Source of the DNA: an uncultured Candidatus Bathyarchaeia archaeon | GTDB taxonomy: Archaea; Thermoproteota; Bathyarchaeia; Bathyarchaeales; Bathyarchaeaceae | Reading direction: 5' to 3' | NCBI GenBank assembly: GCA_964623205.1 | Contig: CAZUQX010000001.1 | Span: 153,954-217,953 of the forward strand | DNA: 64,000 bases | Shown: one piece after another, positions 25,367 to 57,375 of the stretch | How the letters are laid out: each line of letters opens with the position of its first letter | Position numbering within the stretch: the stretch's first letter is position 1 | The notes under the pieces: model-generated | The model's input: the letters and a program-made list of their open reading frames with translations, nothing else | What the model was told of the DNA's origin: nothing | Databases searched by the model: none | Translations under genes and position numbers: made by a program

Positions 25367-25840
25367 CTAGCCGAATCTAGCAATTAAATTCTGTTCCACC
25401 AGAATATAGGCTACAAGGAGTAGAGCACAGCCAATCAGAAGGAATCTGTATGCTTGACGGGGGCTATAAGCGTACTTGGTGCTTCTATATGCTATGAGAA
25501 ATCCCGAGACACCTAGAGCATAGAAGACCATGATGGTTACGCTCTCTAAGAGAAACTGTTCAGTTATACCATAAGGATAAGAGGTGATTATTGTCCCACC
25601 CGAAACAACGATTGCAACTATGGGCTGAATCAGGATGTCGTAGACTCCTCCCCCCAACAAGAAGAGGGAGGCAGCGACAACCGCGACGGCGACAATAAAG
25701 GTAGAGGGCTTCGCAGTCACGATTCTCCCGTAGGTTTTTTGCAATGAAAAAGCAAGCGAGGAGATTCGTTTACTAAACCACTTCGACACAGTTATCAATC
25801 CTTGTTCTTCAATATTTGCTCTGCCACTTCTTTTGCCCAT
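25367..25840 (-). CDS. hypothetical 4-TM membrane protein
   Basis: 157 aa with four hydrophobic helices. It overlaps the upstream 69-aa gene by 46 nt. Confidence 0.45.
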   Translation of the reverse strand: MGKRSGRANIEEQGLITVSKWFSKRISSLAFSLQKTYGRIVTAKPSTFIVAVAVVAASLFLLGGGVYDILIQPIVAIVVSGGTIITSYPYGITEQFLLESVTIMVFYALGVSGFLIAYRSTKYAYSPRQAYRFLLIGCALLLVAYILVEQNLIARFG

Positions 25841-37058: not shown

Positions 37059-37970
37059 TCAAATTGTTAGGGAGTGCCTGCGGTATTTGAAGAGGCCAGG
37101 AAATAAGTAATATGTAGCTCCCTTTATAGCATAACCGAGAGACTTGGCGATATCATAACCGTCACTAACTCTGTTCCGGGTTCTCGTGAAAACTCCAGCC
37201 CCACGTTCATAAGAGATCCTTCCAAACCTCGACATCAACCTAGAAATTTTCTGATCTTCAGCTATTCCCAGCTCTGGGTCATAGGGTCCATGCCCGTTAC
37301 AGGACATCCTGCAGGCAACATCATGTAACAAGGCTATGCTGCATCCGGGAACGCTAGCTCCAATTATCGCAATTCCACCTATTCTAACAGTCGGAAACTT
37401 CAGGGAAAGACGTGTCACAAAGTTTGCTCCCATGATTCCAAATCTTCTTCCTAGCTTAAGGCTGTCTCTTGGTCTCAAAGACGGAACGCTGGCGACGATA
37501 TCCTTCCTTTTGAAGGCGGAATACATCACTTCGAAATAATTCTCATATTTGTCCAATTCAGAAAATAGGTAGGCATCGTCAATCTCGGTTCCCGTAGAAA
37601 AGAGTGAGTCAATATCATGAAAAACAATTATCTTCCCCTTTGCATGCTTAAATCCTAAATTCCTTCCTATGGCGGGAGAATCCCACCACGGATACTTGAT
37701 TATTCCAGATTTCCAGAGTTTCTCCCTATACTCCTCGTATTCTTCCGGAGAAATTATTGTGGAGTCATAAATTTCGGGCAACTCCGCGTTTTCTCCTGCA
37801 TCAACAACTAAAAATTCGATTGCGTTTTTCTTTCCTGTTTTTTCTTCAAAAACCTTCTTCGCTATCTCCCAGTTGTTGAAAGTCTCTTTGAGGGCTTCTG
37901 TATTTTTCTCGCCTCTTCCTGTTGTTATCACCGAGAAGACTGGGTGTGACATAACCTCTCTTAGAAGCAT
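37059..37970 (-). CDS. glycosyltransferase-like (GT-A fold) protein
   Basis: EFLVVDAGENAE ... IGRNLGFKHAKGKIIVFHDIDS (DxD-like). By-eye evidence only. Confidence 0.4.
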   Translation of the reverse strand: MLLREVMSHPVFSVITTGRGEKNTEALKETFNNWEIAKKVFEEKTGKKNAIEFLVVDAGENAELPEIYDSTIISPEEYEEYREKLWKSGIIKYPWWDSPAIGRNLGFKHAKGKIIVFHDIDSLFSTGTEIDDAYLFSELDKYENYFEVMYSAFKRKDIVASVPSLRPRDSLKLGRRFGIMGANFVTRLSLKFPTVRIGGIAIIGASVPGCSIALLHDVACRMSCNGHGPYDPELGIAEDQKISRLMSRFGRISYERGAGVFTRTRNRVSDGYDIAKSLGYAIKGATYYLFPGLFKYRRHSLTI

Positions 37971-38017: not shown

Positions 38018-38869
38018 CTATTTGCTGATACGATATGTCTTGGAAACATATTTTCCATAGGCTAACGCAGCAATGGCTGAAACCCACGCAGCCGCATTCT
38101 GACAGAAAACATATCTCCACAAGAGGTCCCCCCCGGTAAAGGACTGGGGTCTAGATGTTACAAGACCTTCAAAGGCATTTCTGAAACCTGGAGCTATGGC
38201 ATGCAAGCCGCCGTCTATGGCTGATACTATTGGAGCTAAAGCTTTAGCTATCCCCTGCAATACCTCGATTGTTTTTAACACAAACCCATGTAAAGCCGAG
38301 TTTGCACTGTAAAGTTCAACCGCGAAATCGTTGAACAGATTAGGGTACACTAAAACATAAAGTATGATAATGGACAACAGAAAGATCGTCAAGACAGTTA
38401 CCATGCTTTCAAAGGTTAATCTGCCAAAAGAGAGCCTCCGCTGCACAAATGAAACGCCGCGAGACCGCAGAAAGAAGCTGCCAATTTGACTGAAAAAGTT
38501 CTCAATAGCCCCAAAGATCCTTCGAAGGAAGTTTAATCGTGTTTTTCTCCTTCTTGGGCGCCTTCTACGGATTTGTGAAACCTTGGCTAGAGATTGTTTA
38601 CGTGCCCCCATGGCTAAATATTTCGTAAGATATATCCAGCTTGAGACTAGGACCAGTACGACGCCAAGGGGAAGAAGATGAAAGAGAGGGCTGACAGTTA
38701 CGGTGAAAAACTTGAATGAGAAAGCCTCCGTTAGTCCTGCAACCGTGAAAAATGAGACCATGAAGAACTCGGAAATAAGCGCTAAGGCAAGAAACAAGAC
38801 TATTGTCAAGAGTCCCTTGGGTGCAGTCCACCTGAAAGTTAAGCGGTTCCTTTGTCCTTTAGACGTCAT
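38018..38869 (-). CDS. hypothetical polytopic membrane protein
   Basis: 283 aa with several TM helices and an Arg-rich loop (QIRRRRPRRRKTR). Confidence 0.45.
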   Translation of the reverse strand: MTSKGQRNRLTFRWTAPKGLLTIVLFLALALISEFFMVSFFTVAGLTEAFSFKFFTVTVSPLFHLLPLGVVLVLVSSWIYLTKYLAMGARKQSLAKVSQIRRRRPRRRKTRLNFLRRIFGAIENFFSQIGSFFLRSRGVSFVQRRLSFGRLTFESMVTVLTIFLLSIIILYVLVYPNLFNDFAVELYSANSALHGFVLKTIEVLQGIAKALAPIVSAIDGGLHAIAPGFRNAFEGLVTSRPQSFTGGDLLWRYVFCQNAAAWVSAIAALAYGKYVSKTYRISK

Positions 38870-39173: not shown

Positions 39174-40154
39174 ATGTCGAAAGTTTCGAAAAAAGAACTG
39201 CATGAGCTGTACAAAGATCATAAAGTGCAGCTTCTTATCAGCAAGTTTGTGAGCGAAGAGCTTGGTAAATTGAATCCGTTTTACGATCCGAAGCGTGGTT
39301 TTAGGTATCCGATTGTGGATGAGATTGTGGGGGGCTCCTCCAGCACAGAGCAATTTTTGCAGAAACTATTTGAGGGCGGCGTTCTGGAGAGGAAACTTCA
39401 AGACAAAATCATCTATTGTCCGTCTTGTAGTTCAGCGAACGTTTCTATTCATTACACCTGTCCTCACTGCAAATCTTTCGATGTCAAGAAGAGTGCCTTG
39501 ATTGAGCACATTAAATGTGGGTATATTGACACTGAAGACCACTTTCAGGAAGAAGGCAAACTAGTTTGTCCTAGATGCCACAAAGAATTAACAAATCCTG
39601 ATTTGGACTATCACAAAGCAGGAGTATGGTGTACCTGTAATCAATGTAGCAAGAGCTTTGACATTCCGGTTCCAGCCCACTTTTGCCGTGAATGCCATGA
39701 AGGATTCAGTTTTGATGAAGCCATTTACAAAGACGTGTACTCCTACAGTTTAACCTCAGATGCTAAACAAGAAGCGACGATTGGTTGGGTTCTGATCGCG
39801 CCTATGATGGAATTTTTGGATGGTCTCGGATTCGAAGTAGAGAGTCCTGGTTTCTTGAATGGAAAATCTGGGACCAGTCACATGTTTGACTTAACCGCCG
39901 TCTCTGCTGGGAAGAAACAAAACACAACCGCAATTGATCTTGCAACTTCCACGGAGGGTGTTGTATCTGAGCAGTCGGTAATCTCGATGTTTGCTAAGAT
40001 TTTTGATGCTACACCAGACAAGGCGTGTCTTGTGGCGATTCCAAAGATGAATGAGAACGGGAAGAAATTGGCGGCACTTTACAAGATAGATCTGATTGAG
40101 GCCAAAGATCAGGATGCGGCACTAGAAGCATTGAAGGCTTGCGTAGCGAAATAA
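39174..40154 (+). CDS. multi-zinc-ribbon protein with C-terminal alpha/beta domain
   Basis: CPSC..CPHC, CPRC..CNQC and CREC pairs in the centre. The C-terminal block is GKSGTSHMFDLTAV. The gene is convergent with the pilus operon, with stops 1 nt apart. Confidence 0.55.
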   Translation: MSKVSKKELHELYKDHKVQLLISKFVSEELGKLNPFYDPKRGFRYPIVDEIVGGSSSTEQFLQKLFEGGVLERKLQDKIIYCPSCSSANVSIHYTCPHCKSFDVKKSALIEHIKCGYIDTEDHFQEEGKLVCPRCHKELTNPDLDYHKAGVWCTCNQCSKSFDIPVPAHFCRECHEGFSFDEAIYKDVYSYSLTSDAKQEATIGWVLIAPMMEFLDGLGFEVESPGFLNGKSGTSHMFDLTAVSAGKKQNTTAIDLATSTEGVVSEQSVISMFAKIFDATPDKACLVAIPKMNENGKKLAALYKIDLIEAKDQDAALEALKACVAK

Positions 40155-40155
40155 A

Positions 40156-43023
40156 TCAACTTCCGGAATATACTGCAGTGTTTCCCCGTTCAGTCACAAC
40201 TTTCACGGTGTAATTACCTGTTGGTAACCCGATGTCTGTGCGAAGGTAATTTTTGGTATCTGCAGAATTCACGAAAACATCTATGCCGTAATGTTGATGG
40301 TCTGTCGAGTTAATTATCCATAATGAGACCAGATGGAGGGTTAGGCCTCCGTCGTTTTTGAAGGTAAATCGAGTTCCGTCCACTTTTACTCTAACTCCCA
40401 GAAAATCTACATCAACAGATGTTTGGTCACTATCGGCACCCAAGTCCACAAATTTGACGTTTATTGTACCGTTGCTATGAACATAGCTTTGCCATACATT
40501 TGTGAGATTCACAGCATAGTAGTCCCACCCTGTTGTCGGCGTGTAGCCTTGGGTATAGTTGAAGCCGTAGTCACTGTAGGTGGAGGCTGTCCAGTTGTAG
40601 GCTTTCAGATACCATTTCTCTGCAGAGTGATCAGCCCTATACCTCAACTGTATCTCAACTGCTTGAATATCTTCCAACAGGTATGTGGACGTGTCTATTG
40701 TGAAAGCTCCGTTTATGTCAAGTTGATAATTTTCGGGGCTTAGTTCTATAAGGTCGGCTTTGAAGTCAAAGCTTGTGTCTGTTGTTTTCACTCCTTTAAG
40801 TTTCATCCTCCAGTGGCTTGTGGCGTTTCTGAAATGGGTAGGATTCTGCGTTATTGTTTGGCTTTGGGCCTCATCTGTATCTGCAGTGGCGCTTGACAGG
40901 TAATTTATGTAGCCGTCTCCGCTTGTTGGATAAGCCCCAAGGGTGAAATTATAAAGTTGCATTGTAACATTCACTGAACCCGTTGTCCATGCGCTGTCGA
41001 TCATCCAAGTTAGCTGACTCCAATCTTCCATGTCGCTTGAACCCGTGAATTCAACCTCTGCAATGTATTCGCTGGACCAGACGTGTAGTAGCGTTGCATC
41101 AATGTCCCAGCTGTCTTGGGTGGCATCGCCTGTTTCTATTCCTCCTTTGAATCTGATCGTAAATGTTGAAGAGGCGAGGTATGAGGAGACTGACGCGTTG
41201 TTCCATCCGCTCGTGAGGTCTGTGAAAATGTTTTGCCATTCTGTGCCGGTCCAAACGTCTACCCGAAGGTTTTCAATAGGTGGGGCGCCAAAGGGAACAT
41301 CGGAGGCGAAGGCGTAGCTTCCGGAACCTGAACCATCGTTGTTATCGGGTCCCACATCATCGAAATTGTTGTTTAGCTTGAAGTAGGACCTTAGGTTAGT
41401 TTCGGAGCCGGTGAGTTCGGTGTTGTAGTCGCTTTGTATCTCAGGTAAGTTTCGATCGGTATCCCAGTATCTCAGATCTTCTCCATGGCCATCTGTTGCA
41501 TCTACGCCTCCTCTAGCGGCCATGAAATTGTTTTGTGTGACACCTAAAGTTGAAACTGTAGATGTCCAGGCGTTGTTGTAGGCGTCCTGTGCTGGAGAAG
41601 TGTCTTGGTCTCCAACGTATAGATACAGGTCGTCAGTGTTTTCGTCCCATACGATTGCAATGAAGTACCATTCTTCGGCTGTGAAGCTTGTGCTGCTTGT
41701 AAGAGAACTTGTACCTCCCCAGTCAAGAACCAGATTTGTGCCAGAAAATCTAGCTTCCATGTCAGTGTGTTGACCCCATGGTCTATCAGCAATTGTGTCC
41801 CATTGAATCCAGAATGATATAGTTCCTGTTGTGGAGCCCCAGTTAGGGGTTCCGTTACCGATTTGCATGTATCCACCTGTGGCATCCAGAGAATGCGAGT
41901 TACTTCCCGTGTTTACATAGATTGCTAGCCCCTCGTTAGTTTCATCGTAGTCAACGTTAGTCCATTGGACTTCTAAATCTAATTCGCAATTGGTTTGGTC
42001 TGTTTCCTTATTCACAGTCACCAAATCAACATAAGCATCATCGTTGGAATAGCTCGTAGTTGTATGCCATCGTATTTTGAAATCTGAGTTGAAATATTGG
42101 CTATCTGTAACTTCTACTTGATAGTAGAGCCATTGAGTGGATGATGTTGCTCCCAGATCATAAATTGTATCCCAAAAAAACCCATCATAATATTGAAGCA
42201 CAAACTCGTTAGGCTCGCATCCTCCATCTCTGTACCAGAAGTCCACGTAAATCGCGTCTGCATCAGAACAATCTATATCGGGAGTAGTCAGGTCTCCAGA
42301 GCGTCCACTAGAGCCATCAAAATATGCTGAATAGGATCCATCGTAGGCCTGGCTGTCATCTTTATTCCAATAGCCAGTTTCAGTCCACCCGGCTGGAGGC
42401 CAAGTGCCTTCAAATGATTCTGCATCAATCAATGTAGTATTTCCCAAACCTCCACTGTTTCCCTCAGTCAACATATCGTAAACCGAGTTTGGGCCAGTCT
42501 GTTGTGCTGTGAAGTTTCTGTGGGTTCCTTTGTCAGCAGAGGAGTCTAAGTCAGACGTGTTGTTGTCTACGAAATCTGGCGTATCTGTTTCTGTGGAATA
42601 GCTTCTGAAACTCATGTAGGTACCGTCATCTAAAGTTAAATCTGAAACACTTCCTGAAACCCAGCTCGTTGAACCACCAAGACTATACACGGAAGGACTG
42701 TGAGGCAGAACTGAAGTTTCACTGAACCTCTCGAAAACCTCGTCAGCGGTTTGCGTATTCACATAAGTTCCATTTACGAGGATGCCTGTGTTCACTGTAT
42801 ATTCGCTTTGGGCTCCAAGCCAGGAAGAACTAGTGACTTGTTCAACATTGGTGATGCTGGCGTTCTCTTTTAGTTTCTCCCAGTCATGCTGGTTCATCTC
42901 ATAACTCCACAAGACAATATTGGAGACTATTGCTAGAATGATCACTAGGCTAAGGGCAATAACTATTACGTTGCTGATGCCCCTTCGGTCCCTTTTAAGA
43001 CGGCGACGTGTAATAGTCCACAA
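40156..43023 (-). CDS. 955-aa secreted pilin-like adhesin (class III signal peptide; LamG-like and anchor-J/MAM-like beta domains)
   Basis: The N-terminus KRDRRG|ISNVIVIALSLVIILAIV is an archaeal prepilin-type signal. The internal GTISFWIQWDT...EEWYFIAIVWDENTDDLYLYVGD matches the LamG pattern. It is W/Y/T/N/D-rich. Confidence 0.7.
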   Translation of the reverse strand: MWTITRRRLKRDRRGISNVIVIALSLVIILAIVSNIVLWSYEMNQHDWEKLKENASITNVEQVTSSSWLGAQSEYTVNTGILVNGTYVNTQTADEVFERFSETSVLPHSPSVYSLGGSTSWVSGSVSDLTLDDGTYMSFRSYSTETDTPDFVDNNTSDLDSSADKGTHRNFTAQQTGPNSVYDMLTEGNSGGLGNTTLIDAESFEGTWPPAGWTETGYWNKDDSQAYDGSYSAYFDGSSGRSGDLTTPDIDCSDADAIYVDFWYRDGGCEPNEFVLQYYDGFFWDTIYDLGATSSTQWLYYQVEVTDSQYFNSDFKIRWHTTTSYSNDDAYVDLVTVNKETDQTNCELDLEVQWTNVDYDETNEGLAIYVNTGSNSHSLDATGGYMQIGNGTPNWGSTTGTISFWIQWDTIADRPWGQHTDMEARFSGTNLVLDWGGTSSLTSSTSFTAEEWYFIAIVWDENTDDLYLYVGDQDTSPAQDAYNNAWTSTVSTLGVTQNNFMAARGGVDATDGHGEDLRYWDTDRNLPEIQSDYNTELTGSETNLRSYFKLNNNFDDVGPDNNDGSGSGSYAFASDVPFGAPPIENLRVDVWTGTEWQNIFTDLTSGWNNASVSSYLASSTFTIRFKGGIETGDATQDSWDIDATLLHVWSSEYIAEVEFTGSSDMEDWSQLTWMIDSAWTTGSVNVTMQLYNFTLGAYPTSGDGYINYLSSATADTDEAQSQTITQNPTHFRNATSHWRMKLKGVKTTDTSFDFKADLIELSPENYQLDINGAFTIDTSTYLLEDIQAVEIQLRYRADHSAEKWYLKAYNWTASTYSDYGFNYTQGYTPTTGWDYYAVNLTNVWQSYVHSNGTINVKFVDLGADSDQTSVDVDFLGVRVKVDGTRFTFKNDGGLTLHLVSLWIINSTDHQHYGIDVFVNSADTKNYLRTDIGLPTGNYTVKVVTERGNTAVYSGS

Positions 43024-43408
43024 CCTTTGTTCCCCTCCGGGTTACAACCTTAATCTCATAAACGGAGTCTGAACTCCAACTACAAGTGACGTTCAACCAA
43101 CCATGCTTATCCTCTTCCAATTCAAGAGACGTAAACGATTGCGATACACGGTCAACATACACGGCAGCTATCTTGATAGAAACCTTGCCCACATTGCGAA
43201 TGTACATTGAAACCTGATCTGTCGTAAACCAAACATCCTCAACAATGAGGCGTTCACCCATATTGTCGTGAAGATTATCTGTGATAACATAAGTAGCTGA
43301 AACAGCAATCGACATAGCAACAACAGCAAGAACCATCAATAAGAGATTGCTCAAGACAGGGGTTATTCCCCTCCTGTTCCGCAGTAGTTTTCTCACATTT
43401 TTCACCAT
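42995..43408 (-). CDS. archaeal type IV pilin
   Basis: RNRRG|ITPVLSNLLLMVLAVVAMSIAV class III signal peptide. ATG 43408 overlaps the upstream stop (TAATG). The ORF track extends to 43441. Confidence 0.75.
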   Translation of the reverse strand: MVKNVRKLLRNRRGITPVLSNLLLMVLAVVAMSIAVSATYVITDNLHDNMGERLIVEDVWFTTDQVSMYIRNVGKVSIKIAAVYVDRVSQSFTSLELEEDKHGWLNVTCSWSSDSVYEIKVVTRRGTKVVDYYTSPS

Positions 43409-44223
43409 TACACTACAAATTTGAAGGTCAGATATCCGCAAATCAAGAGAATAACACTGTGTTTTAGTCCGCCGCCAACTGTTCCCTCGCCCATTTTTCC
43501 AGCGACGAGACCTCCGAAGAAGGCTTGTATGGCACCCATGTGAAAGAAAATCTTTCTTGCTTCCTCAGGAGCCATCAGCTCAAACTGGCTTGTGGGGATA
43601 TCCGCCATGTCAACAAAGAAAGATTTGAAGAGCATAATAATTGTGAAGAGGAAGACGAAGAACGCCACGTAGATAATCGCAAGATAAGGCCTAGTCTGAG
43701 TTTTACGCTCGGCATCAAATGTCAAAATTGTCTGCACAAATTTCTGCAGCGGATCAAAAACTTCTTCAACCTTTCCTCCTGACCTGTGAGCTTCGAGAAT
43801 CAAGGGAATTGTTCGTCCTATAAGAGCGGTGTCAACACGCTGGCCAAAGGATTGAAGCGCCTCTTCGAAGGGCACTCCCCAGCTCATCTGGGCTACCATC
43901 TTCTTCAGTTCCTTGGTCAAAGGTCCATAATTCCTCTTAGATGCTTCCTCCAACGCCTGCGGCAAAGTCATCCCGGTTTTTTGAGCTTGAACTATGCTTC
44001 GAAAGAGGTCGGGAAGATGTTTGTCGATAGATCTCTTCCAACGATAATCTGCATAATCGAGGACAGCTGGAGGAAAAACGGTGATCACCACCGCTAATAG
44101 GAAATATTCATCGAAGAGAGGGCTATCCCTAAGGAAGAGGACAGCCGTTACGCATATTATTACCCCTAGAATACTCGAGACAATCCAAGCGATTTTCTTC
44201 TCAGACTTTCTAACTTTAGGCAT
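43408..44223 (-). CDS. type IV pilus platform protein, single T2SSF domain (TadC/EpdK-like)
   Basis: LPDLFRSIVQAQKTGMTLPQALEEA ... LILEAHRSGGKVEEVF plus C-terminal TM helices. Confidence 0.7.
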   Translation of the reverse strand: MPKVRKSEKKIAWIVSSILGVIICVTAVLFLRDSPLFDEYFLLAVVITVFPPAVLDYADYRWKRSIDKHLPDLFRSIVQAQKTGMTLPQALEEASKRNYGPLTKELKKMVAQMSWGVPFEEALQSFGQRVDTALIGRTIPLILEAHRSGGKVEEVFDPLQKFVQTILTFDAERKTQTRPYLAIIYVAFFVFLFTIIMLFKSFFVDMADIPTSQFELMAPEEARKIFFHMGAIQAFFGGLVAGKMGEGTVGGGLKHSVILLICGYLTFKFVV

Positions 44224-44227
44224 AGTG

Positions 44228-45118
44228 TCATCTCTTCGGCGACATCATATCCAAGATTACCAGAAATATCATTGACCCAATCGGCAAGCCGATGTAGGTC
44301 AAAAGTTGCAATAATAGACGAGAGTCCAAAGGACCAAATCCCCCACTCCCCAGCATAGCCATAACCGCAAGCATTACTATGAAGATGAGGGATCCCGCAA
44401 CCATCAGAGTGACGTAAAACTCCGCCAGAACTCCAAGAGTATCAGAGAAACGCTGCAGTGCAATCTGCTTTAATTTCATGTATTCTTGCGATCGGTCGCT
44501 GAGATATTTTTCCAAGTCTCCTCCTGAGTGGACAACGGCAATGAACCCTTCAAGCATCTCTTTAAACTTTTCAGAAGGCGTTCGCAGAGATGTATTTTCC
44601 AATGCTGAAATGGCGTTATAGCCGAAAAGCTCTATGTCCCGGACTATGGTTCTCGCCACGTTAGAGATTGCCAACGAGGCGTCAATTTGGGCTAAGGAAC
44701 GCCATATAAAGTCCGGAGGCACACCGGCCCCAGCTAAAATCGACATATATCCTACAGTAAAAGGGAGCTCATCATCCAAGGCTCTCTTCAGACTGTCTGC
44801 CCGAGATTTTGGATAAGAATAGAAACCTATCACGGTTAAAGCTCCTGCAAATAAACTTGCTCCGGCTCCAAAGAGAAGCGATTGAAAAAGAGAAAATCCA
44901 AAGATGAAAAATAAAAGCGCTGGAACAACAATTATAAGCGAGACAGATACCAACAGGCTCGCAAGAATGGCCGCGCTGACGTACGCTTTGAAGTTAACTC
45001 TCATCCCTGACTTCTTTAGGCTCACGTCCAAATCTTTGAACAATGGCAAGAATCGGTTTGCTCCTCCTAAGATGCGATAAGCTCTTTTGAGCCCCCCTCC
45101 CTCTTTGTTTGAAGTCAT
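44228..45118 (-). CDS. type IV pilus platform protein, single T2SSF domain (TadB/EpdJ-like)
   Basis: LPFTVGYMSILAGAGVPPDFIWRSLAQ ... FIAVVHSGGDLEKYL with TM helices at both ends. Confidence 0.7.
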   Translation of the reverse strand: MTSNKEGGGLKRAYRILGGANRFLPLFKDLDVSLKKSGMRVNFKAYVSAAILASLLVSVSLIIVVPALLFFIFGFSLFQSLLFGAGASLFAGALTVIGFYSYPKSRADSLKRALDDELPFTVGYMSILAGAGVPPDFIWRSLAQIDASLAISNVARTIVRDIELFGYNAISALENTSLRTPSEKFKEMLEGFIAVVHSGGDLEKYLSDRSQEYMKLKQIALQRFSDTLGVLAEFYVTLMVAGSLIFIVMLAVMAMLGSGGFGPLDSRLLLQLLTYIGLPIGSMIFLVILDMMSPKR

Positions 45119-46632
45119 GATTGTCCCAACCTAGCCTTTCGAAAGACGCGGATGGGATCAGCATAGTATTCTCTGATGACCGAAACGACATCGCTGTACT
45201 TACGAATCTCCTTTTTCACCATCCAGTCTAGTACCGTTTTTCTTCGATTAAGCTCCTCTAGAACCTCTTTTTCATCAAGTCCTTTGCGGTTCATTTTTTC
45301 ATCCAAGATGTGGCTATGGCCAGAATATACGTAAGTATCATGTCTTGCATCCCACCGATACACTTCGTTGGTTAACAGTTCCCTTGTCTTGGGATCTAAA
45401 CCAACGATCTCTGTTACTGTGCGAGTTCTTCGGGCGGGTTTTCCATTAACTTCGGTTCGCAACTGAACAGTTATAGCATCAATCATTGTTAGGAGAGGCC
45501 TCGGAATGTTCATTGGTTCTGATTCCAAACGGTGAATAACTGAACTTGCAGATTCGCCATGGATTGTTCCCATTCCTAGGTGACCTGTTGCCATGGCTTG
45601 GAAGAGGGTGTAAGCTTCTTCTCCCCGAACCTCGCCCACAAGTAGGTAATCTGGTCTCTGACGAACAGCTGCCTTCAAAAGATCAAAGAGCGTAACAGTT
45701 CTAGCACCTCTCTTATCGTGTCCGAACCCCATTCTTGCAACTGATGGAATCCAATTTTCGTGGGGCAAGTTTAACTCAGCAGTATCTTCTACACTGACTA
45801 CCTTTAGTTCAGGTTTGATGAACATCGAAAAGCAGTTGAGTGCAGTTGTTTTTCCAGAGGCTACACCACCGGATACGAGAATTGATGCCCTGTTTTCTAT
45901 TGCATACCAGAAGTATGCAGCCATATCAGATGAGAGAGTTCCGAAGGAGATCAGGTCAGAGATGGTGAGGGGGTCGGTACGGAAGCGCCGTATCGTAAAA
46001 GTTGAGCCTCTGCGGGTAATTTCGTCTCCGTAGGTCATTTGAACTCGGCTGCCGTCGGGTAGAGACGCGTCAACTATTGGCATTGCAAGGGAAATGTTCT
46101 TTTTCGACAAGTAAGCCAGTCTTACTATGAAGGAGTTTAGTTCTTCGCTGTTTTTGAAGAGAACGTTTGTTGGGAGAGATTCGTAGTTGCGGTGCCAAAC
46201 GTAGATTGGTATATTAACTCCGTCTGCTGATATGTCTTCGATCAGAGGGTCTTTCATGAGAGGATCTATTTTCCCGTAGCCTAGGAAGTCCCGTATGATG
46301 AAGTACATTAGTTTGTCCACAGCTTCCTCGGCGATTTTGAGGCGGTAATCCTTGATGATTTCAAGAATCTTAGTTTTTAAATACTCTTCAGCCTTGTCTC
46401 GTGTTCCGATTTCTTTGAGGTTGACATTGATTTCTTCAACCAATATATCTTTGATTTCTTTGAGTTGATCTTCCTCTTCTTTGATGAGGGTGGGTTCGAT
46501 CAGTTCATATTTTATTCGCTGGGTTTTTGGTTCAGTAACCACTGCCGCGTAGACGTAAGGCTCATGGATGGGGTATACCTCTCGGAAAACCGAGGCTTTT
46601 TTTTCAGGCGTAGATTCTGAGTTACCTTTCAT
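45115..46632 (-). CDS. FlaI/TadA/VirB11-family type IV filament assembly ATPase
   Basis: Walker A SGGVASGKTT, Walker B region PDYLLVGEVRGEEA and the His-box TGHLGMGTIH. 505 aa. 4-nt overlap with the next gene. Confidence 0.85.
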   Translation of the reverse strand: MKGNSESTPEKKASVFREVYPIHEPYVYAAVVTEPKTQRIKYELIEPTLIKEEEDQLKEIKDILVEEINVNLKEIGTRDKAEEYLKTKILEIIKDYRLKIAEEAVDKLMYFIIRDFLGYGKIDPLMKDPLIEDISADGVNIPIYVWHRNYESLPTNVLFKNSEELNSFIVRLAYLSKKNISLAMPIVDASLPDGSRVQMTYGDEITRRGSTFTIRRFRTDPLTISDLISFGTLSSDMAAYFWYAIENRASILVSGGVASGKTTALNCFSMFIKPELKVVSVEDTAELNLPHENWIPSVARMGFGHDKRGARTVTLFDLLKAAVRQRPDYLLVGEVRGEEAYTLFQAMATGHLGMGTIHGESASSVIHRLESEPMNIPRPLLTMIDAITVQLRTEVNGKPARRTRTVTEIVGLDPKTRELLTNEVYRWDARHDTYVYSGHSHILDEKMNRKGLDEKEVLEELNRRKTVLDWMVKKEIRKYSDVVSVIREYYADPIRVFRKARLGQS

Positions 46633-46789
46633 TAGCCCTCACGTTTACTCCATTGTTTAGTTCTGCCGATAGGGAATTGGCTGATGGAGCCGTTTTCTGT
46701 CGTTTCCATGGCAAAAATATATTGTATAGTAAGACTTAATAAAATCTATGGAGTGAGAATCACTTATCTCTTGAACATCCCAACAAAAG

Positions 46790-48568
46790 CTAAGCCGCCC
46801 AAAAAGGGGACTCGAGCCTCATAATCTCTATAAACTCATTCAACACTCCAACTTCTTCAGGAGTCAAACGATCTTGAAACTTTGTCAACAAAACCTTTGC
46901 GTGAGCTTCAGGCACCCTAACATAAAAGACATCTCCCTCATGGATGTGGCGACCCACGACGGTTTTGTTCAACGAAACGGCTACCTGCAACCCAACATTA
47001 GCTTCTGATACCGCTTTTCCGCGGTCCTGAATCTGCAGAATCTCTCCAACGTTCCGCCCATCTTCCTTAACAAGAACATATTTTGGTTTGATTCGCCCCG
47101 CCAAAATTTCGACGCCAATAACTGCGGGTTTCGCTTTCCTGAAAACGTAACCTGGGAGAAACTTCACTTTGCCCGGTTTTACTAATCTGTCGAATTCTTC
47201 TCCAAGTCGGGTCTCCTCCTCTTTTTTCACCCACTGAAGGTATTCGTCGATTAGGTGGTAGATGATTTTGTGCTTAAAAATGGGAATATCGCGATTTCTT
47301 GCCTCCTCCTCGGCGTCTGGCAACACCTTAACATTGAAGGCTAAAATAACTCCATTAAGGGGTTCTCGCTCTTTAACCACGACAGCTTCAGTGACGTCAC
47401 GTTTAGAGACATCCCCAACATCCGCCACCTTTATCTGAACATTGTTTCGTTTCAAACTCTCGGCAATCGCCTCAAGCGACCCTAAGGCGTCAGTTTTCAA
47501 AACAACGCCATCCACATCGGTGGCAATCTTGATTTTCTCAACCTCTTCAGAAACCAAATCCACATACTCTTCAAGACGAGTTCCAGAGGGAACAGCATAC
47601 AAAGGCGCACCAGCCAAGGCTTCCTCAAGATTTGGCGCTGCAATCTTTATTCCAGCCGCAGCCGAAACAGAATCAACCGAGGAAAATTTGTCTCGAGGGT
47701 CTCTTATCTCATCCAATGGCTTAGGCAGGAGGATTGCGCGAATGTTGGTTGCAATCGGTTTTTCTTTGGCGCCAACCACTATTAGGTCGCCCTTTTGAAG
47801 TATGCCGTCGTAAATAATCACGTTGATAGTAATACCTAGACCTGGTTCCTCTTTAACTTCCAATACGGTTCCCTTCGCCGGTCCCTCTGTTGTCTTGAGT
47901 CTGGATTGCAGATACTGCTGGGTCAGGCCCACGAGAACAGCTAAGAGTTCGGGTATGCCCTCTCCGGTTTTGGCGCTTGTGGGGACGATGGCGATTGTTT
48001 TGGTGAAATCTGTTACGTTGTCGAACCGGTCGGCTCTGAAGCCCACTCTGGAAAAAGTTCCCATAATCCTGTATAGATGTTCATCTAGCTCTTGACGAAC
48101 GAAGGGATCTTGGTCTCGATAAGCGGCTGAAAAAGTTGTCCCAGAGTTGGATTTCCATCCGGGTACGCGATCAATTTTGTTTGCCGCCACAAGGAAGGGA
48201 GTTTTTCTCTCTTTCAGAATATCAATACACTCATAAGTCTGAGCTTCAAATCCTCTGAGAACGTCAACTACAAGAATCGCAATATCTGCTGCTGCACCCC
48301 CTCTCTTTCTCAAGTTGGCGAAGGCTTCGTGACCTGGTGTATCGATGACAAGCAGTCCTGGAATTTCCACGTTCGTTTTTAATCCTTTCAGCAGGGGTCC
48401 ACAGATTTTGGTGAGGGTCTTTACGGGAAAGAAACTTGCGCCGATGTGTTGGGTGATGCCTCCGACTTCGCGGGCTTGAACCGTGCTTTTTCTGATCTTA
48501 TCGAGAAGCAGAGTCTTTCCAGTGTCTATGTGACCTAGGACAGAGACGATGGGTTGTCTTATGGGCAT
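46790..48568 (-). CDS. infB: translation initiation factor aIF5B (IF-2)
   Basis: PIVSVLGHIDTGKTLLLDKIR, DTPGHEAF and ANKIDR GTPase motifs. 592 aa. Confidence 0.92.
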   Translation of the reverse strand: MPIRQPIVSVLGHIDTGKTLLLDKIRKSTVQAREVGGITQHIGASFFPVKTLTKICGPLLKGLKTNVEIPGLLVIDTPGHEAFANLRKRGGAAADIAILVVDVLRGFEAQTYECIDILKERKTPFLVAANKIDRVPGWKSNSGTTFSAAYRDQDPFVRQELDEHLYRIMGTFSRVGFRADRFDNVTDFTKTIAIVPTSAKTGEGIPELLAVLVGLTQQYLQSRLKTTEGPAKGTVLEVKEEPGLGITINVIIYDGILQKGDLIVVGAKEKPIATNIRAILLPKPLDEIRDPRDKFSSVDSVSAAAGIKIAAPNLEEALAGAPLYAVPSGTRLEEYVDLVSEEVEKIKIATDVDGVVLKTDALGSLEAIAESLKRNNVQIKVADVGDVSKRDVTEAVVVKEREPLNGVILAFNVKVLPDAEEEARNRDIPIFKHKIIYHLIDEYLQWVKKEEETRLGEEFDRLVKPGKVKFLPGYVFRKAKPAVIGVEILAGRIKPKYVLVKEDGRNVGEILQIQDRGKAVSEANVGLQVAVSLNKTVVGRHIHEGDVFYVRVPEAHAKVLLTKFQDRLTPEEVGVLNEFIEIMRLESPFWAA

Positions 48569-53828: not shown

Positions 53829-54956
53829 ATGAAAGCGAACGAGCGAACTGTGAGGAACAGACCTCTTTTGTACATGATGACTTGGAGATGTACGAGAGCC
53901 TGTAACTATAACTGCTTGTACTGCAGCTTTGCTTCCAACCCCAACGCCGTGAATGAGATTGACACAGAAGGGGGAAAACGCATAGTTGACGACCTCTACG
54001 AGATGGGAGCAAAATGGTTCGGACTAAGTGGTGGAGAGCCTCTTTTACGGAAAGACATTTTCGAGATTATAGCTCACGCCAAGAGCCTTGGTATGAACGT
54101 GAGCCTCATAACAAATGGCTATTATGTTAAGGGAGACATACTTGACAATTTGATTAGAAACGAAGTCATGACCGCTGTAAGCGTTGATGGAAAGGAAGAA
54201 ACAAACGACCTTACACGCGGCAAAGGCTCCTATGCTACGGCTCTTAAAGCTATTAAGAGGCTGTCGAAGGCTGGAATTTTCGATTGCATTGTAACGACCC
54301 TCAACAAACTCAATTACAGAGAGGTGGGTCATATAGCCCAGCTGGGGGAAGAGTATAATGCCACCCGTGTAGTTTATCACAATTATATTCCAGTTGGTAG
54401 AGCCCAGGAGCATCTGGATTTGGCTCCGTCACCCCAGCAATATGAGTGGGTTTGGAACCAAATCTACGACCTCATGCAGGAATACAAAGGAAAAATCGGC
54501 ATCAACGTGTATTGTCCCTTCTTTGCTCGCATCGCAAAAGAACGAGGAATGCCCGACTTCGACTATTGGTTCAACAACGTTTTCCTTGGTCAATGCTTCA
54601 TGGGCGGCAGATACATGGGTCTCCTCGAAAACGGGGACATCAGACCCTGCGGCTTCAACGAAGGCTACAGACTGGGAAACATCCGGAACAAATCTATGAA
54701 GGAAATCTGGACTGAAATGCAAAACTCAGAGTTGCATCGTAAGCTCAGAGATCGCAGTAACTTGAATGGAAAATGTGGTGTATGCGAGTACCGGGAAATT
54801 TGTGGTGGTTGCAGAACCCGAGCGGAAATCTATACTGGGGATCTTTTCGCTTCTGATCCAGCATGCGCATATATTCCTAAACTGCTGCGTGAAACGCGCG
54901 GACCTGACCTTGAAAAAGTCATTTACAGCAAAAGGGAATTTGGGTTACCCCTTTAA
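53829..54956 (+). CDS. radical SAM enzyme with C-terminal SPASM/twitch-type auxiliary cluster domain
   Basis: CNYNCLYC (CX3CX2C), GGEPLL, and the C-terminal CFMGGRYMGLLENGDIRPC ... CGVCEYREICGGC ... C. Confidence 0.8.
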   Translation: MKANERTVRNRPLLYMMTWRCTRACNYNCLYCSFASNPNAVNEIDTEGGKRIVDDLYEMGAKWFGLSGGEPLLRKDIFEIIAHAKSLGMNVSLITNGYYVKGDILDNLIRNEVMTAVSVDGKEETNDLTRGKGSYATALKAIKRLSKAGIFDCIVTTLNKLNYREVGHIAQLGEEYNATRVVYHNYIPVGRAQEHLDLAPSPQQYEWVWNQIYDLMQEYKGKIGINVYCPFFARIAKERGMPDFDYWFNNVFLGQCFMGGRYMGLLENGDIRPCGFNEGYRLGNIRNKSMKEIWTEMQNSELHRKLRDRSNLNGKCGVCEYREICGGCRTRAEIYTGDLFASDPACAYIPKLLRETRGPDLEKVIYSKREFGLPL

Positions 54957-55149: not shown

Positions 55150-57375
55150 ATGCCGAGGCAGCGAAGAAAATCGGGTCTAAGGGTTCTCAAGGCTGCGTCA
55201 TCCTCCTTGCGTATGCAGCTTCTTCTCATTCTTGTAGACAAGGGACCTCAGTCCTACACTGACCTCATGAAGATTCTGAAGCTCAATCCAAGCAGAGACG
55301 CAGGAAGGTTCGCCTATCACCTCAAATACCTCCTCAAAGCCGACCTTATAGAACCTGACGTAGACAACAAGGAATACCGCATAACTGACCTCGGCAAAAC
55401 CATGATCAGTTTCACAGAGGACATCCAGCAACAGTTTTTCCAAAGAAAAAAGATTCTCGTTCGAACCTCCCGCCTAGCCATGGAAGAATTTGACAGAAAC
55501 AAGATTGTTGAATCCTTGGTAAAGGAGGCAAACGTCCCCATATCCCAAGCTCAGAAAATCGCTAGAGAAACCGAAAAACGCCTCTTAGAGTTTAAGACAA
55601 AATACTTGACAGCTCCTCTAATACGGGAAATTGTCAACGCCATCCTCATAGAAAAAGGCCTAGAAGAATACCGCCACAAACTCACACGCCTCGGACTCCC
55701 AGTCTTCGACGTAAATCAACTGATAACGTCAACTGGCACCACATCCCAGAGCGTGGGAGCGATTCACCAAGCGGCTGCTGACGCCGTCATGGAAGAGTAC
55801 ACCCTCCTCAACGTTCTTCCAAGAGATATTGCCGACGCCCACCTTTCTGGAGGTCTCCACCTCAAAAATCTCGGAACCTGGGTTTTGAAACCTGACCAAT
55901 TCATGCATGACCTACGCTTTTTCCTTCAAGGGGGATTGAGCCGTGGAGGACTGAACCTTCAGGAGCCATCTTATTTTCCGCCCAAAAGCCTAGAAAGCGC
56001 GCTACTAACAGCTTCCAACATTCTGAAAATCGCTGCCAGAGAAGTCTCTGGAGAACAGGCTCTGGACTTCTTCAACATCTTTTTAGCCCCCTTCACTCAA
56101 GGTCTTTCAGAAGAAAGAATTAGCGACGGGCTACGCCTCTTTGTCTCAAACTTGAATCAACCCCTCTCAGAGGGAGGTTCAGTGGGAGCTTCCTTGGGTC
56201 TAGAATTTCTCGTCCCTGACTTCCTGAAAGAGGAGGAAGCCATTGGACCTGAAGGAAAAAATGTAGGATGTTACGGAGATTTTGTTGAGGAAAGCCGCCG
56301 CCTAGCCTCCATTCTTCTCAAGGTCATTTCTGAAGATGACATGCATAAACCAGTTTTCAATCCACGTTTGGTAATAAAGATACGCCCTGAAGTCCTCGAA
56401 GACAGGGAATGCACCTCTCTTCTCTTCGAGTCTCATAAACTTGCGGCTGAAACAGGTCTTCCCTACTTCGCTAACCTCTGTCCAAAGGAACAGATGAGGG
56501 CATCTTATACTTCAACTGGTTTCAGGCTAGCGTCTGAATGGAGAGGAGACTGGGAACTGGATACCCTGCAGACAGGTAGCGTGGACAGCGCGATAGTGAA
56601 CTTGCCGAGGGTCATGTATGAAGCAGAGGGCAGAGAAACCAACTTTTTCCGCCTATTAGACGAGCAACTGGAAATGGCTTTACGGGCCTTGGAGATAAAA
56701 TATCGAACCATCAAACAACGGGCAAGGGAACATCTTCTCCCATTCCTGATGCAGAAGACTGACGGAGACCAATACTTCAGAATCAAAAACTCCGTCCGCC
56801 TCGTCAGCTTCGTAGGCTTGAACGAAACCATCCAAGCGTTCTTCGGGAAACCCTTACGGCAAGATGGCGAGACCCTCGATTTTGCCAAGAAAATAGTTAC
56901 TTATCTTTCCAGTGACATTAAGAAGTATTCAAGGAAGCCTGAGACCCGAGCGTCCCTAGCTATGATGCCTGCCGCCGATGCCGCGAAAAGACTGGCAGAA
57001 CTTGATGCGGAAAAATATGGGTGGGCAAAGGTTCGTGCCCAAGGCACAAGAGAAAAACCTTTCTACACTGACTTGGTTGCCCTGCCGTTAGGAGTCGACG
57101 TTTCCTGGAAAGAACGGTTAAGGGTTGAGGAGAAATTCCACAGGTTGACTTCGGGAGGTCACTTAGCCGTTTTGCCGCTCGTTGACTCTGAGCAAGAGCC
57201 GGATGAATTGGTTTCGTTCACCAAAGGTGTCGCTGGAACTTACGGGGTTGGGCTCTACGTTTTCAATCGGAATATTGCCTATTGTGCGAGTTGCCAGAAG
57301 ACTTTCATTGGGAAATTGGCGAGGTGCCCGTCATGTGGATCCGTTAATATGCTCCAGTCCTTCAGTCGTATATAA
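55150..57375 (+). CDS. wHTH + ATP-cone + NrdD-like (class III RNR-like) protein lacking catalytic Cys and the glycyl-radical motif
   Basis: ArsR-like wHTH (residues about 15-95), ATP-cone (KILVRTSRLAMEEFDRNKIVESL...), then colinear similarity to the downstream NrdD (ADAHLSGGLH, FLAPF, GLPYFANL, NLPRV, CASC..CPSCGS). It ends ...SFSRI* without a GY motif. Confidence 0.75.
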   Translation: MPRQRRKSGLRVLKAASSSLRMQLLLILVDKGPQSYTDLMKILKLNPSRDAGRFAYHLKYLLKADLIEPDVDNKEYRITDLGKTMISFTEDIQQQFFQRKKILVRTSRLAMEEFDRNKIVESLVKEANVPISQAQKIARETEKRLLEFKTKYLTAPLIREIVNAILIEKGLEEYRHKLTRLGLPVFDVNQLITSTGTTSQSVGAIHQAAADAVMEEYTLLNVLPRDIADAHLSGGLHLKNLGTWVLKPDQFMHDLRFFLQGGLSRGGLNLQEPSYFPPKSLESALLTASNILKIAAREVSGEQALDFFNIFLAPFTQGLSEERISDGLRLFVSNLNQPLSEGGSVGASLGLEFLVPDFLKEEEAIGPEGKNVGCYGDFVEESRRLASILLKVISEDDMHKPVFNPRLVIKIRPEVLEDRECTSLLFESHKLAAETGLPYFANLCPKEQMRASYTSTGFRLASEWRGDWELDTLQTGSVDSAIVNLPRVMYEAEGRETNFFRLLDEQLEMALRALEIKYRTIKQRAREHLLPFLMQKTDGDQYFRIKNSVRLVSFVGLNETIQAFFGKPLRQDGETLDFAKKIVTYLSSDIKKYSRKPETRASLAMMPAADAAKRLAELDAEKYGWAKVRAQGTREKPFYTDLVALPLGVDVSWKERLRVEEKFHRLTSGGHLAVLPLVDSEQEPDELVSFTKGVAGTYGVGLYVFNRNIAYCASCQKTFIGKLARCPSCGSVNMLQSFSRI

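Follow-up and report, generated by a model that had tools for sequence, protein, structure and literature searches.

A probable adhesive type IV pilus locus of the TackOD1-linked type in Bathyarchaeia, with a putative modular pilin that carries an internal insert

Type IV pilus loci linked to the TackOD1 domain have been described in Thaumarchaeota and the wider TACK group (Thaumarchaeota, Aigarchaeota, Crenarchaeota and Korarchaeota; Makarova, Koonin and Albers 2016; Galperin et al. 2018). In these loci, a gene for a FlaI-family (arCOG01817-type) ATPase is followed by two half-size TadC genes, a gene for a Cys-rich Zn-ribbon TackOD1 protein lies adjacent, and a small pilin is accompanied by a large protein with class III signal. 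The literature connects arCOG06883 (TackOD1) with thaumarchaeal type IV pilus loci, and Table S4 of Makarova et al. (2016) lists the same arrangement, with arCOG06883, in Nitrosopumilus AR2 and AR1. All of these features recur in the locus described here, which lies in a stretch of 64,000 nucleotides (hereafter the window) from an uncultured Candidatus Bathyarchaeia archaeon (GenBank assembly GCA_964623205.1, contig CAZUQX010000001.1, positions 153,954 to 217,953). As an archaeal type IV pilus locus it is real and strongly conserved; its function is most likely adhesive, and it is of the TackOD1-linked TACK type rather than the Epd/Tad type. We consider it probable that the locus encodes a non-rotary machine of the archaeal type IV filament (TFF) superfamily, and that the larger of its two pilins, pilin B, is an adhesin.

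The Bathyarchaeia version of the locus has features of its own. The Nitrosopumilales loci comprise genes for TackOD1, ATPase, TadC, TadC and a number of class III proteins, among which one measures 596-641 aa. There TackOD1 is the first gene of a divergently oriented pilin operon that includes 3-4 class III genes, whereas in the window it is encoded by a separate convergent gene. The Bathyarchaeia locus also adds a gene for a conserved 283-aa membrane protein, and its large class III protein proves to be a pilin interrupted by an insert.

Two other described systems invite comparison. The flagellar-like pilus of Pyrobaculum calidifontis, published in 2023, is built from a pilin that resembles the smaller pilin of our locus (pilin A), including the helix-end ER..(I/V)E and the C-terminal VVT.RG motifs, and both loci are without FlaF and FlaG. 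The P. calidifontis locus differs by its KaiC/FlaH-like ATPase; no KaiC-like gene was found in the window or in the syntenic loci. Its host is a hyperthermophilic Thermoproteale, and neither a modular pilin nor TackOD1 has been reported there. Further, Sivabalasarma and Albers (bioRxiv 2026) report simple Aap-like systems from Bathyarchaeota as well as a "minimal subsystem 4A" that comprises an ATPase, two platform proteins, an adhesin and a pilin, with pilins assigned to arCOG11238/arCOG06117. Going by that description, the gene content of subsystem 4A agrees with that of our locus, and the Aap pilus of Sulfolobus acidocaldarius (8Q30) is another match of the pilin A family (E=5e-10). By sequence, however, the ATPase in the window lies closer to afGspE of clade 2 and to the model for FlaI than to that for BasE of clade 4I (229 bits), and TackOD1 does not figure in the consulted sections of the preprint on 4A.

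The operon consists of five co-directional open reading frames (ORFs) on the minus strand, 46632..40156. It begins with the ATPase gene (45115..46632, 505 aa), whose product is of the FlaI/GspE2 (VirB11-superfamily) type. The N-half (PlatN, 44228..45118, 296 aa) and the C-half of the platform (PlatC, 43408..44223, 271 aa) follow, each with one T2SSF domain and about 4 transmembrane segments. Then come the genes of pilin A (42995..43408; 137 aa from ATG 43408 or 133 aa from GTG 43396, with the full ORF extending to 43441) and pilin B (40156..43023, 955 aa, TTG start). A preceding sequence-only reading of this DNA had reported five such genes: an ATPase, two single-domain platform proteins, a 137-aa pilin and a 955-aa protein, the latter two with class III signals. 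Re-calling of ORFs placed every gene at the same coordinates, the Pfam T2SSE and T2SSF matches agree with the first three assignments, and both signal motifs are present and conserved in orthologs. The junctions were also re-read as reported: a 4-nt overlap at 45115-45118 (ATGA), a 4-nt gap at 44224-44227, TAATG at 43410-43406 and a 29-nt overlap at 42995-43023. The TackOD1 and membrane-protein genes lie outside the coordinates of that reading, and it mentioned neither them nor the paralogy of pilin B with its internal insertion.

In close relatives, the sole possible start of pilin A is the codon aligned with GTG 43396 of the window (MRKLL..., 133 aa, preceded by the Shine-Dalgarno-like GGTGA). 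Because of this, the 137-aa ATG start is uncertain, and with it the TAATG coupling; stop/start coupling between pilin A and the platform gene may not be used. For pilin B, TTG is the only possible start in 23/39 orthologs. The overlap of the two pilin genes measures about 26-32 nt in 23 of the 37 loci that carry both, and it is longer where the first possible start lies further upstream. The conserved overlap and the TTG start would fit coupled, low-level synthesis of pilin B. Upstream of the operon, the segment between the aIF5B and ATPase genes (46633..46789, minus strand) is, as judged from its sequence, the probable operon promoter and 5' leader. It has an A/T-rich TATA-like stretch, ttactatacaatatattttt, about 75-95 nt 5' of the ATPase ATG and a Shine-Dalgarno-like GAGGG motif 5 nt 5' of it.

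Conservation of the locus was assessed by a scan of one genome per species, which yielded 80 loci; their ORFs were called and compared with the window proteins. The conservation set consists of the 41 Bathyarchaeia loci in which the ATPase shares 60% identity or more with ours and the downstream flank spans 4.5 kb or more. As the order ATPase, PlatN, PlatC, pilin A recurs in 41/41 loci, the operon is real and under selection, and chance can be excluded. The convergent TackOD1 gene is likewise present in all 41, a homolog of the giant pilin B in 37 and a homolog of the 283-aa membrane protein in 28. Homologs of pilin B are almost all from Bathyarchaeia. In a complete genome (CP070820.1, Candidatus Bathyarchaeum sp.), the same block runs from L7Ae, S28e, L24e, adenylate kinase and aIF5B through the five genes and beyond, with 77-93% identity. 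The sequence-only reading had placed the operon next to a conserved infB/ribosomal block. The neighbours are indeed aIF5B (46790-48568), adenylate kinase and L24e/S28e/L7Ae, but their adjacency is not conserved: aIF5B lies upstream of the operon in only 10/41 loci, all of them close relatives, and is therefore regarded as an incidental neighbour.

The ATPase bears on the kind of machine. It matches T2SSE (Pfam, E=5e-37), its Walker A motif (GGVASGKTT), Asp/Glu boxes and His box are intact, and its C-terminus is PilB3_C-like. The best curated match is the NCBIfam FlaI model (NF058587), with 434.6 bits against a cut-off of 550, i.e. 115 bits short. For calibration, FlaI of Sulfolobus acidocaldarius scores 669.7 bits on this model and the non-archaellar afGspE (Archaeoglobus GspE2) 430.6, while related ATPases of Nitrosopumilus, Heimdall, Thermoplasmatales and distant Bathyarchaeia score 404-448. 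Among sequences of known structure, the order is afGspE (2OAP, 423 bits), FlaI (4II7, 315) and CpaF (173). Because the score on the FlaI model equals that of afGspE and is far below that of a true FlaI, we take the ATPase to be of pilus type. In a rough neighbour-joining tree, ATPases of Bathyarchaeia, Nitrosopumilales, Asgard and Thermoplasmata are nearer to afGspE than to S. acidocaldarius FlaI, with CpaF as outgroup; the references of this tree are these three PDB sequences. The nearest relatives outside Bathyarchaeia and Asgard are the ATPases of TackOD1-linked Nitrosopumilales loci, at 47-51% identity.

The supplementary table of Makarova et al. places Archaeoglobus GspE2 in clade 2. Table S2 of the 2016 paper labels the orthologous TackOD1-linked Nitrosopumilus ATPases "Clade_archaellum", at the boundary of clades 2 and 3, and in the tree of that paper the Nitrosopumilus AR2/AR1 ATPases are sister to a methanomicrobial group of clade 2 with support of 0.88. 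The sequence-only reading had favoured an adhesion pilus over an archaellum and named clustering of the ATPase with FlaI among the findings that would speak against it. FlaI is indeed the best curated match, but with a score below the cut-off. The preference for an adhesion pilus holds, given the failed FlaI cut-off, the afGspE-like score and the fact that archaellin, FlaF/G/H and Che genes were found nowhere among the scanned ORFs of the window.

The platform is split, in contrast to the single FlaJ of archaella. PlatN (T2SSF, E=6e-15) aligns to residues 6-213 of 555 in ArlJ/FlaJ and 41-210 of 484 in UpsF, PlatC (T2SSF, E=3e-19) to residues 184-452 of 465 in ArlJ and 261-436 of 484 in UpsF, and both are found in 41/41 loci. 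Judged by alignment, the two halves together equal one FlaJ/TadC. Such an arrangement is reminiscent of the Epd pili of Methanococcus maripaludis and of bacterial Tad/Flp pili, which likewise have two one-T2SSF platform genes in a compact operon with the ATPase, and large adhesins with DUF2341 are predicted in clade 1 loci. A split platform is not diagnostic of Epd, since surveys report it also in clade 2 and 4A/4B loci. Epd/Tad systems differ from our locus in the ATPase, which here is not TadA/CpaF-like, in the pilin, which here has a globular domain, and in EppA and a large set of minor pilins, which are missing here. The label "Epd/Tad-like", under which the locus had initially been presented, is not supported: TadA and CpaF are only distant relatives of the ATPase, the TackOD1-linked loci of Nitrosopumilales stand nearest outside Bathyarchaeia and Asgard, pilin A is full-size with an Ig domain, and EppA is absent. 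A strict assignment to Epd/Tad is rejected because the TadA model (TIGR03819) gives 165.7 bits against a cut-off of 373, because of the full-size pilin and because of the missing EppA.

Similar machines occur beyond the conservation set. In the Asgard loci L058 and L061-L063 (Borrarchaeum, Heimdall/Hodarchaeota), the ATPases are 51-55% identical to ours and the platform is split; 3-4 class III proteins are encoded downstream, and TackOD1 is not detectable.

Pilin A has a class III signal, RRG|ITPVLSNLLLMVLAVV (RRG|ITPVLS), with a basic leader and a hydrophobic stretch of at least 20 residues. The long N-terminal helix with its polar C-terminal end is followed by a beta-domain of about 80 aa, and the mature form would comprise about 120 aa. 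The signal motif, [KR][GA]|[ILV][TS]PVLS, is invariant in about 50 orthologs. Taken alone, pilin A of the window has no Pfam match and reaches no curated cut-off (TIGR02537, 15.1 bits against 20). Decisive is the evidence from its family. A search of 1.84 billion representative proteins retrieved 274 relatives, mostly 135-150 aa long, and Pfam Pilin_N matches 27/82 members of the family. The family profile aligns over the full length with the subunit of the "flagellar-like" pilus of P. calidifontis, its closest relative of solved structure (8FK7; E=2.4e-25 for the broad and 2.6e-11 for the narrow profile); similarity to FlaG is weak (E=1.4e-5). Pilin A is the probable major filament subunit.

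Pilin B starts in the same manner, with a class III signal, RRG|ISNVIVIALSLVIILAIV (RRG|ISNVIV), a basic leader and at least 20 hydrophobic residues, conserved in about 39 orthologs. Three parts can be discerned on the minus strand. Residues 1-62 (42838..43023) comprise the signal, the alpha-1 helix and the first beta-strand (SITNVEQV); residues 63-868 (40420..42837) are the insert, a chain of predicted beta-sandwich modules; residues 869-955 (40156..40419; ...FTFKNDGGLTLHLVSLWIINST...KVVTERGNTAVYSGS) form a pilin beta-domain homologous to that of pilin A. By alignment, the insertion point lies after the first post-helix strand (around residue 62) and before the rest of the beta-domain (RFTFKNDGG..., around residue 869). 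Nature provides the form without insert as well: pilin B proteins of 132-138 aa, made of helix and beta-domain, are colinear with the window protein minus residues 63-865, the closest at 81% identity. In a profile comparison (hhalign), pilin A and short pilin B align over 123 colinear columns with 96.6% probability and E=5e-10, and the short pilin B profile matches 8FK7 at E=7.5e-4. On these profile alignments, pilin B is a paralog of pilin A that carries an insert of about 805 residues.

The insert is modular, and BLAST mapping shows its modules shuffled among homologs. In the window protein, M1 (53-146), linker L1 (147-193), a CBM-like (carbohydrate-binding module-like) jelly-roll M2 (194-345) and a LamG/ConA-like M3 (346-530) are followed by linker L2 and modules M4, M5 and M6. 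Syntenic orthologs are 137-976 aa long; all of them keep the signal and helix (M0), and nearly all keep M7, the C-terminal domain of about 85 residues. Across species, the modules form a nested series (M0-M7; M0-M1-M6-M7; M0-M1-M2-M6-M7) up to the ten segments of the window protein. Five syntenic orthologs of 137-144 aa are bare pilins without binding module. The pilin domain is C-terminal in 38 of the 39 orthologs that keep it, the exception being L020, which has a C-terminal extension. Laminin_G_3 is detected in 9/38 homologs (best E=7.5e-11), and at the same position the inserts of syntenic orthologs hold DUF2341 (up to 96 bits), GH114_assoc, Big_3_5 or Filamin domains. Makarova et al. associate DUF2341 with predicted tip adhesins.

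An AlphaFold (AF2) model of pilin B has a 38-residue N-terminal helix (14-51) and then successive beta-sandwiches. Its pLDDT is 67.6 overall (pTM 0.34), 85-93 in several domains and 85-90 in the C-terminal domain. Foldseek matches of the model in the PDB include reelin repeats, CBM61 (2xom, TM-score 0.69), CBM22, CBM16, an Eph ligand-binding domain and a gingipain adhesin domain. By composition the insert is acidic, with many Ser, Thr, Asn and Trp residues, and 15 of the 17 N-x-S/T sequons of pilin B fall within it. Such a composition would be typical of extracellular glycan binders. The density of sequons in the insert is 1.8 per 100 residues, compared with 0-0.6 in cytoplasmic neighbours; the number in the whole protein does not exceed what its own composition would give (17 observed, 13.4 expected, p=0.16), and selection for sequons is not claimed.

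Two observations on related surface proteins may be added. Linker L1 (42443-42583, residues 147-193; DFVDNNxSDxDSSADKGTHxNFxAQQxGP...) is nearly invariant among homologs and recurs at module junctions of other Bathyarchaeial surface proteins, yet it is predicted to be disordered (pLDDT about 30). In a distant Bathyarchaeia locus of the same system family (L070:1868-7156), a larger pilin-like adhesin is found, a class III protein of 1762 aa with 7 Big_3_5 repeats and a Filamin repeat beside a 194-aa pilin; both class III genes lie upstream of an ATPase-PlatN-PlatC-TackOD1 operon.

A close analogy to pilin B comes from bacterial modular pilins, such as PilB (vWA) and PilC (ConA-like lectin) of Streptococcus sanguinis (Raynaud et al. 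2021). These, too, combine a class III pilin with bulky ligand-binding modules, including PF13385, and they share a predicted location at the tip and an adhesin role. In PilB and PilC, however, the module is grafted at the C-terminal end of the pilin, whereas here several inserted modules, together up to about 840 residues, separate beta-1 from the remaining pilin domain. The pilin is moreover archaeal, of the Pilin_N type, and the same locus elsewhere displays every intermediate from no insert upward. In this respect pilin B resembles GspK of the type II secretion system, in which an extra domain is inserted within the pilin beta-sheet.

A probable mode of action of the machine is as follows. 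Prepilins A and B would enter the membrane via their hydrophobic N-terminal helices, and an A24 prepilin peptidase encoded elsewhere would cut both after RRG. A hexameric FlaI/GspE2-type ATPase would dock on a heterodimeric platform formed by the two half-size proteins. At the expense of ATP, pilins would then be extracted from the membrane and stacked into a filament, with pilin A (133-137 aa) building the shaft. Pilin B, whose translation would begin at a weak TTG and be coupled to the 3' end of the pilin A gene, would be the first and hence most distal subunit, located at the filament tip or present in very few copies, because an insert of about 805 residues cannot fit in the filament body. 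The same argument from bulk has been made for S. sanguinis PilB and for GspK. In this position pilin B would display its glycan- or surface-binding modules and act as adhesin. We suggest that the insert is a swappable, species-specific cassette that sets what the cell sticks to. The TackOD1 protein, with its zinc ribbon and winged helix-turn-helix (wHTH), would act in the cytoplasm as a regulator or accessory factor.

The TackOD1 gene (39174..40154, plus strand) encodes 326 aa with 14 Cys and matches Pfam TackOD1 at E=1e-39 (136 bits against a cut-off of 32). A wHTH-like N-terminus, a zinc-ribbon region with several CxxC motifs and a C-terminal alpha/beta domain can be distinguished. The gene runs convergently towards pilin B, and a single nucleotide separates the two stop codons. 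Of the 37 loci that carry both genes, 29 have these stops no more than 15 nt apart, the extremes being an overlap of 11 nt and a gap of 15 nt. In some distant Bathyarchaeia, TackOD1 is instead co-directional and directly follows PlatC. Over the best 120 database matches, identity of the protein is 72-91%. According to Galperin et al. (2018), TackOD1 serves archaeal response regulators as an output domain, and for this reason we favour a regulatory role; the protein is a probable cytoplasmic regulator or accessory factor of the pilus. The AF2 model is of low confidence (pLDDT 62.7), with a winged-helix-like N-terminus. Its C-terminal domain (approximately 195-326) matches only PD-(D/E)xK/restriction-endonuclease-like folds in Foldseek (EndoMS/NucS, Can2, VC1899, AF1548). 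E223, D239, D255 and K275 are invariant in this domain, and the canonical (D/E)xK motif is lacking. These model-based matches are weak evidence for a restriction-endonuclease-like fold.

Divergent from the TackOD1 gene lies the gene of the conserved membrane protein (38018..38869, minus strand, 283 aa), with at least 3-4 transmembrane segments and an Arg-rich loop. No Pfam or NCBIfam family covers it. Its N-terminus is class III-like, RWTAPKG|LLTIVLFLALAL (LLTIVLFL...), and the motif (RW.TLKG plus hydrophobic stretch) is conserved in 28 orthologs beside TackOD1. Possibly the protein is an accessory component.

The genes for A24 prepilin peptidases are often located away from the pilus locus. 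Within the 64-kb window, a transmembrane and motif scan of all ORFs of at least 60 aa, combined with Pfam scans of 29 ORFs, found no A24 prepilin peptidase, archaellin, FlaF/G/H, FlaX/CDE, KaiC or Che gene, as the sequence-only reading had stated for the peptidase, archaellin, FlaF/G/H and Che. The transmembrane and motif scan of the window also found no EppA gene and no peptidase with 9 transmembrane segments, and class III pilin candidates other than pilins A and B were not seen in its 64 kb. Three proteins were rejected as prepilin peptidases. One (5899-7719, plus strand, 606 aa, 7 transmembrane segments) has a GFGD motif and is a member of the DUF2070 family; an ORF of 157 aa with 4 transmembrane segments (25367-25840) is too short and misses the motifs; and the 283-aa membrane protein has neither a GxGD motif nor a match to A24.

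Several points weigh against an adhesive pilus with pilin B at its tip. The sole cultivated Bathyarchaeum, B. tardum, which may or may not carry the locus, showed no pili or other appendages in culture. Pilin B is not detectable in 4/41 loci. With no prepilin peptidase in the window, processing of the pilins is an assumption. Pilin A may be a minor pilin and the major one may be encoded elsewhere, since in archaea, according to Makarova et al. (2016), the gene of the major pilin frequently stands alone, apart from the pilus operon. Pilin B of the window reaches no Pfam or NCBIfam cut-off, its family profile matches no PDB sequence, the predicted model of the whole protein is mediocre (pLDDT 67.6, pTM 0.34), and the Foldseek output did not say which query domain of pilin B was matched.

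One rival is a short structure comparable to the Sulfolobus bindosome, in which a TFF machine (BasEF) is presumed to present large class III sugar-binding proteins at the surface. A short pseudopilus or stalk of pilin A would then anchor pilin B, as a CBM-like class III protein, at or through the S-layer and sheath, where it would catch polymers for a detritus-degrading cell. The lack of visible pili on cultivated B. tardum, which possesses both an S-layer and an outer sheath, would be in accord with that, as would the resemblance of the insert modules to carbohydrate-binding modules of glycoside hydrolases. Sivabalasarma and Albers (2026) suggest that TFF machines are equipped for nutrient scavenging by class III binding proteins. 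On the other side, neither in the window nor in relatives is the locus accompanied by a gene for an ABC transporter, a substrate-binding protein or a glycoside hydrolase. The ATPase obtains only 229 bits on the BasE model and the BasF model gives 60 bits ("exception" cut-offs 1000 and 1300), the binding protein here keeps a complete pilin domain, five syntenic orthologs of pilin B have no binding module, and pilin A has its closest solved relatives among the subunits of genuine long filaments (8FK7, Aap). We regard such a structure as the main rival of the adhesive pilus, albeit an unlikely one. A second rival is to treat both pilins of the operon as minor, with a role in priming or at the tip, and to derive the shaft from a stand-alone major pilin elsewhere in the genome. 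Besides the general observation of Makarova et al., this could be argued from the faint FlaG-likeness of the pilin A family (E=1.4e-5) and from the 3-4 class III proteins in related Nitrosopumilales and Asgard loci. Pilin A, on the other hand, directly follows the platform genes in 41/41 loci, its closest solved relatives (8FK7, Aap) are major subunits, and the 64-kb window offers no further class III candidate. Two minor pilins appear rather improbable.

The remaining alternatives concern the identity of the machine itself. An archaellum-derived or "flagellar-like" filament for swimming or surface motility, with no adhesin to carry, could appeal to FlaI as best curated match of the ATPase and to the "Clade_archaellum" label of the orthologous Nitrosopumilus ATPases. 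It is very hard to reconcile with the ATPase score, 115 bits below the FlaI cut-off and typical of afGspE, with the neighbour-joining tree, rough as it is, in which the whole family sides with afGspE rather than S. acidocaldarius FlaI, or with a window in which archaellin, the FlaF/G stator, FlaH/KaiC, FlaX/CDE and Che were not found. The cultivated relative is non-motile, and a tip subunit with an 805-residue insert points to adhesion; motility thus seems a slight chance. True orthology with the Methanococcus Epd pilus or the bacterial Tad pilus is largely refuted, and we give it hardly any credence. In its favour remain the platform made of two genes, as in EpdJ/K and TadB/C, and the DUF2341 modules, typical of clade 1 loci, in pilin B of some orthologs. 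The former is shared with clade 2 and 4A/4B loci. The TadA score of 165.7 bits (cut-off 373) and the preference for afGspE over CpaF (423 against 173 bits) speak against it, and pilin A is not one of the short Flp/Epd pilins, which have about 70 aa and no globular domain. EppA and a set of at least 5 minor pilins are missing, the class III pilins being only two, and in Table S2 of Makarova et al. the related thaumarchaeal ATPases carry the label Clade_archaellum and their sister group in the tree the label Clade_2, not Clade 1.

Returning to the adhesive pilus, a bolder extension of it can be put forward, tentatively and with the odds somewhat against it. The pilin B gene might be a hot spot of cassette exchange, in which modules (CBM-like, LamG, DUF2341, GH114-associated, Ig; 0 to about 840 residues in total) are repeatedly inserted, swapped and deleted by Bathyarchaeia species at a single site after beta-1, within an operon that is rigid in all other respects. 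This would make it an insertion-type modular pilin, undescribed for archaea, that, in the manner of a phage receptor-binding protein, tunes to which particle, polymer or partner cell a given lineage attaches, on a machine governed by a DNA-binding or nuclease-like TackOD1 protein.

Several other genes of the window deserve mention. Downstream of the membrane-protein gene lies a gene for a GT2-family glycosyltransferase (37059..37970, minus strand, 303 aa; Glycos_transf_2, 23.8 bits against a cut-off of 23.3). It is syntenic only in the 3 closest relatives, and its link to the pilus locus is weak. An AglB/STT3 oligosaccharyltransferase (28893-31157, plus strand, 754 aa, 11 transmembrane segments) is encoded about 9 kb from the pilus locus and is the likely N-glycosylation enzyme for the pilins. 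Two paralogous genes for anaerobic ribonucleotide reductase (NrdD) stand side by side (55150-57375 and 57862-60063, both plus strand), one with an ATP-cone and the other with a C-terminal zinc ribbon, and a radical-SAM/SPASM gene (53829-54956) lies upstream of the pair. Finally, the window contains an archaeal ATP-grasp protein similar to D-Ala-D-Ala ligase (61890-62882, minus strand; Dala_Dala_lig_C, E=6e-35).

Taken together, the locus belongs to a gene-cluster type that is already catalogued in published surveys of archaeal type IV filaments, and it does not overturn current views. The species-variable modular pilin of insertion type and the kinship of the pilin to the flagellar-like pilus of Pyrobaculum are the features most worth following up. 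The TackOD1-linked pilus family extends from Thaumarchaeota to Bathyarchaeia, and the flagellar-like pilin of Pyrobaculum has relatives in Bathyarchaeia, a group with a mesophile as its one cultivated strain. The idea of modular pilins, developed for bacteria, would apply to archaea as well, with another topology, insertion in place of a C-terminal graft. Bathyarchaeia are among the most abundant archaea of anoxic sediments and are barely cultivated. For their contact with particulate substrates or partner cells, the locus offers a conserved candidate attachment machine with a clearly identifiable, species-variable binding subunit. If cassette exchange in pilin B is true, it would provide a handle on how these abundant uncultured sediment archaea attach to substrates or syntrophic partners.

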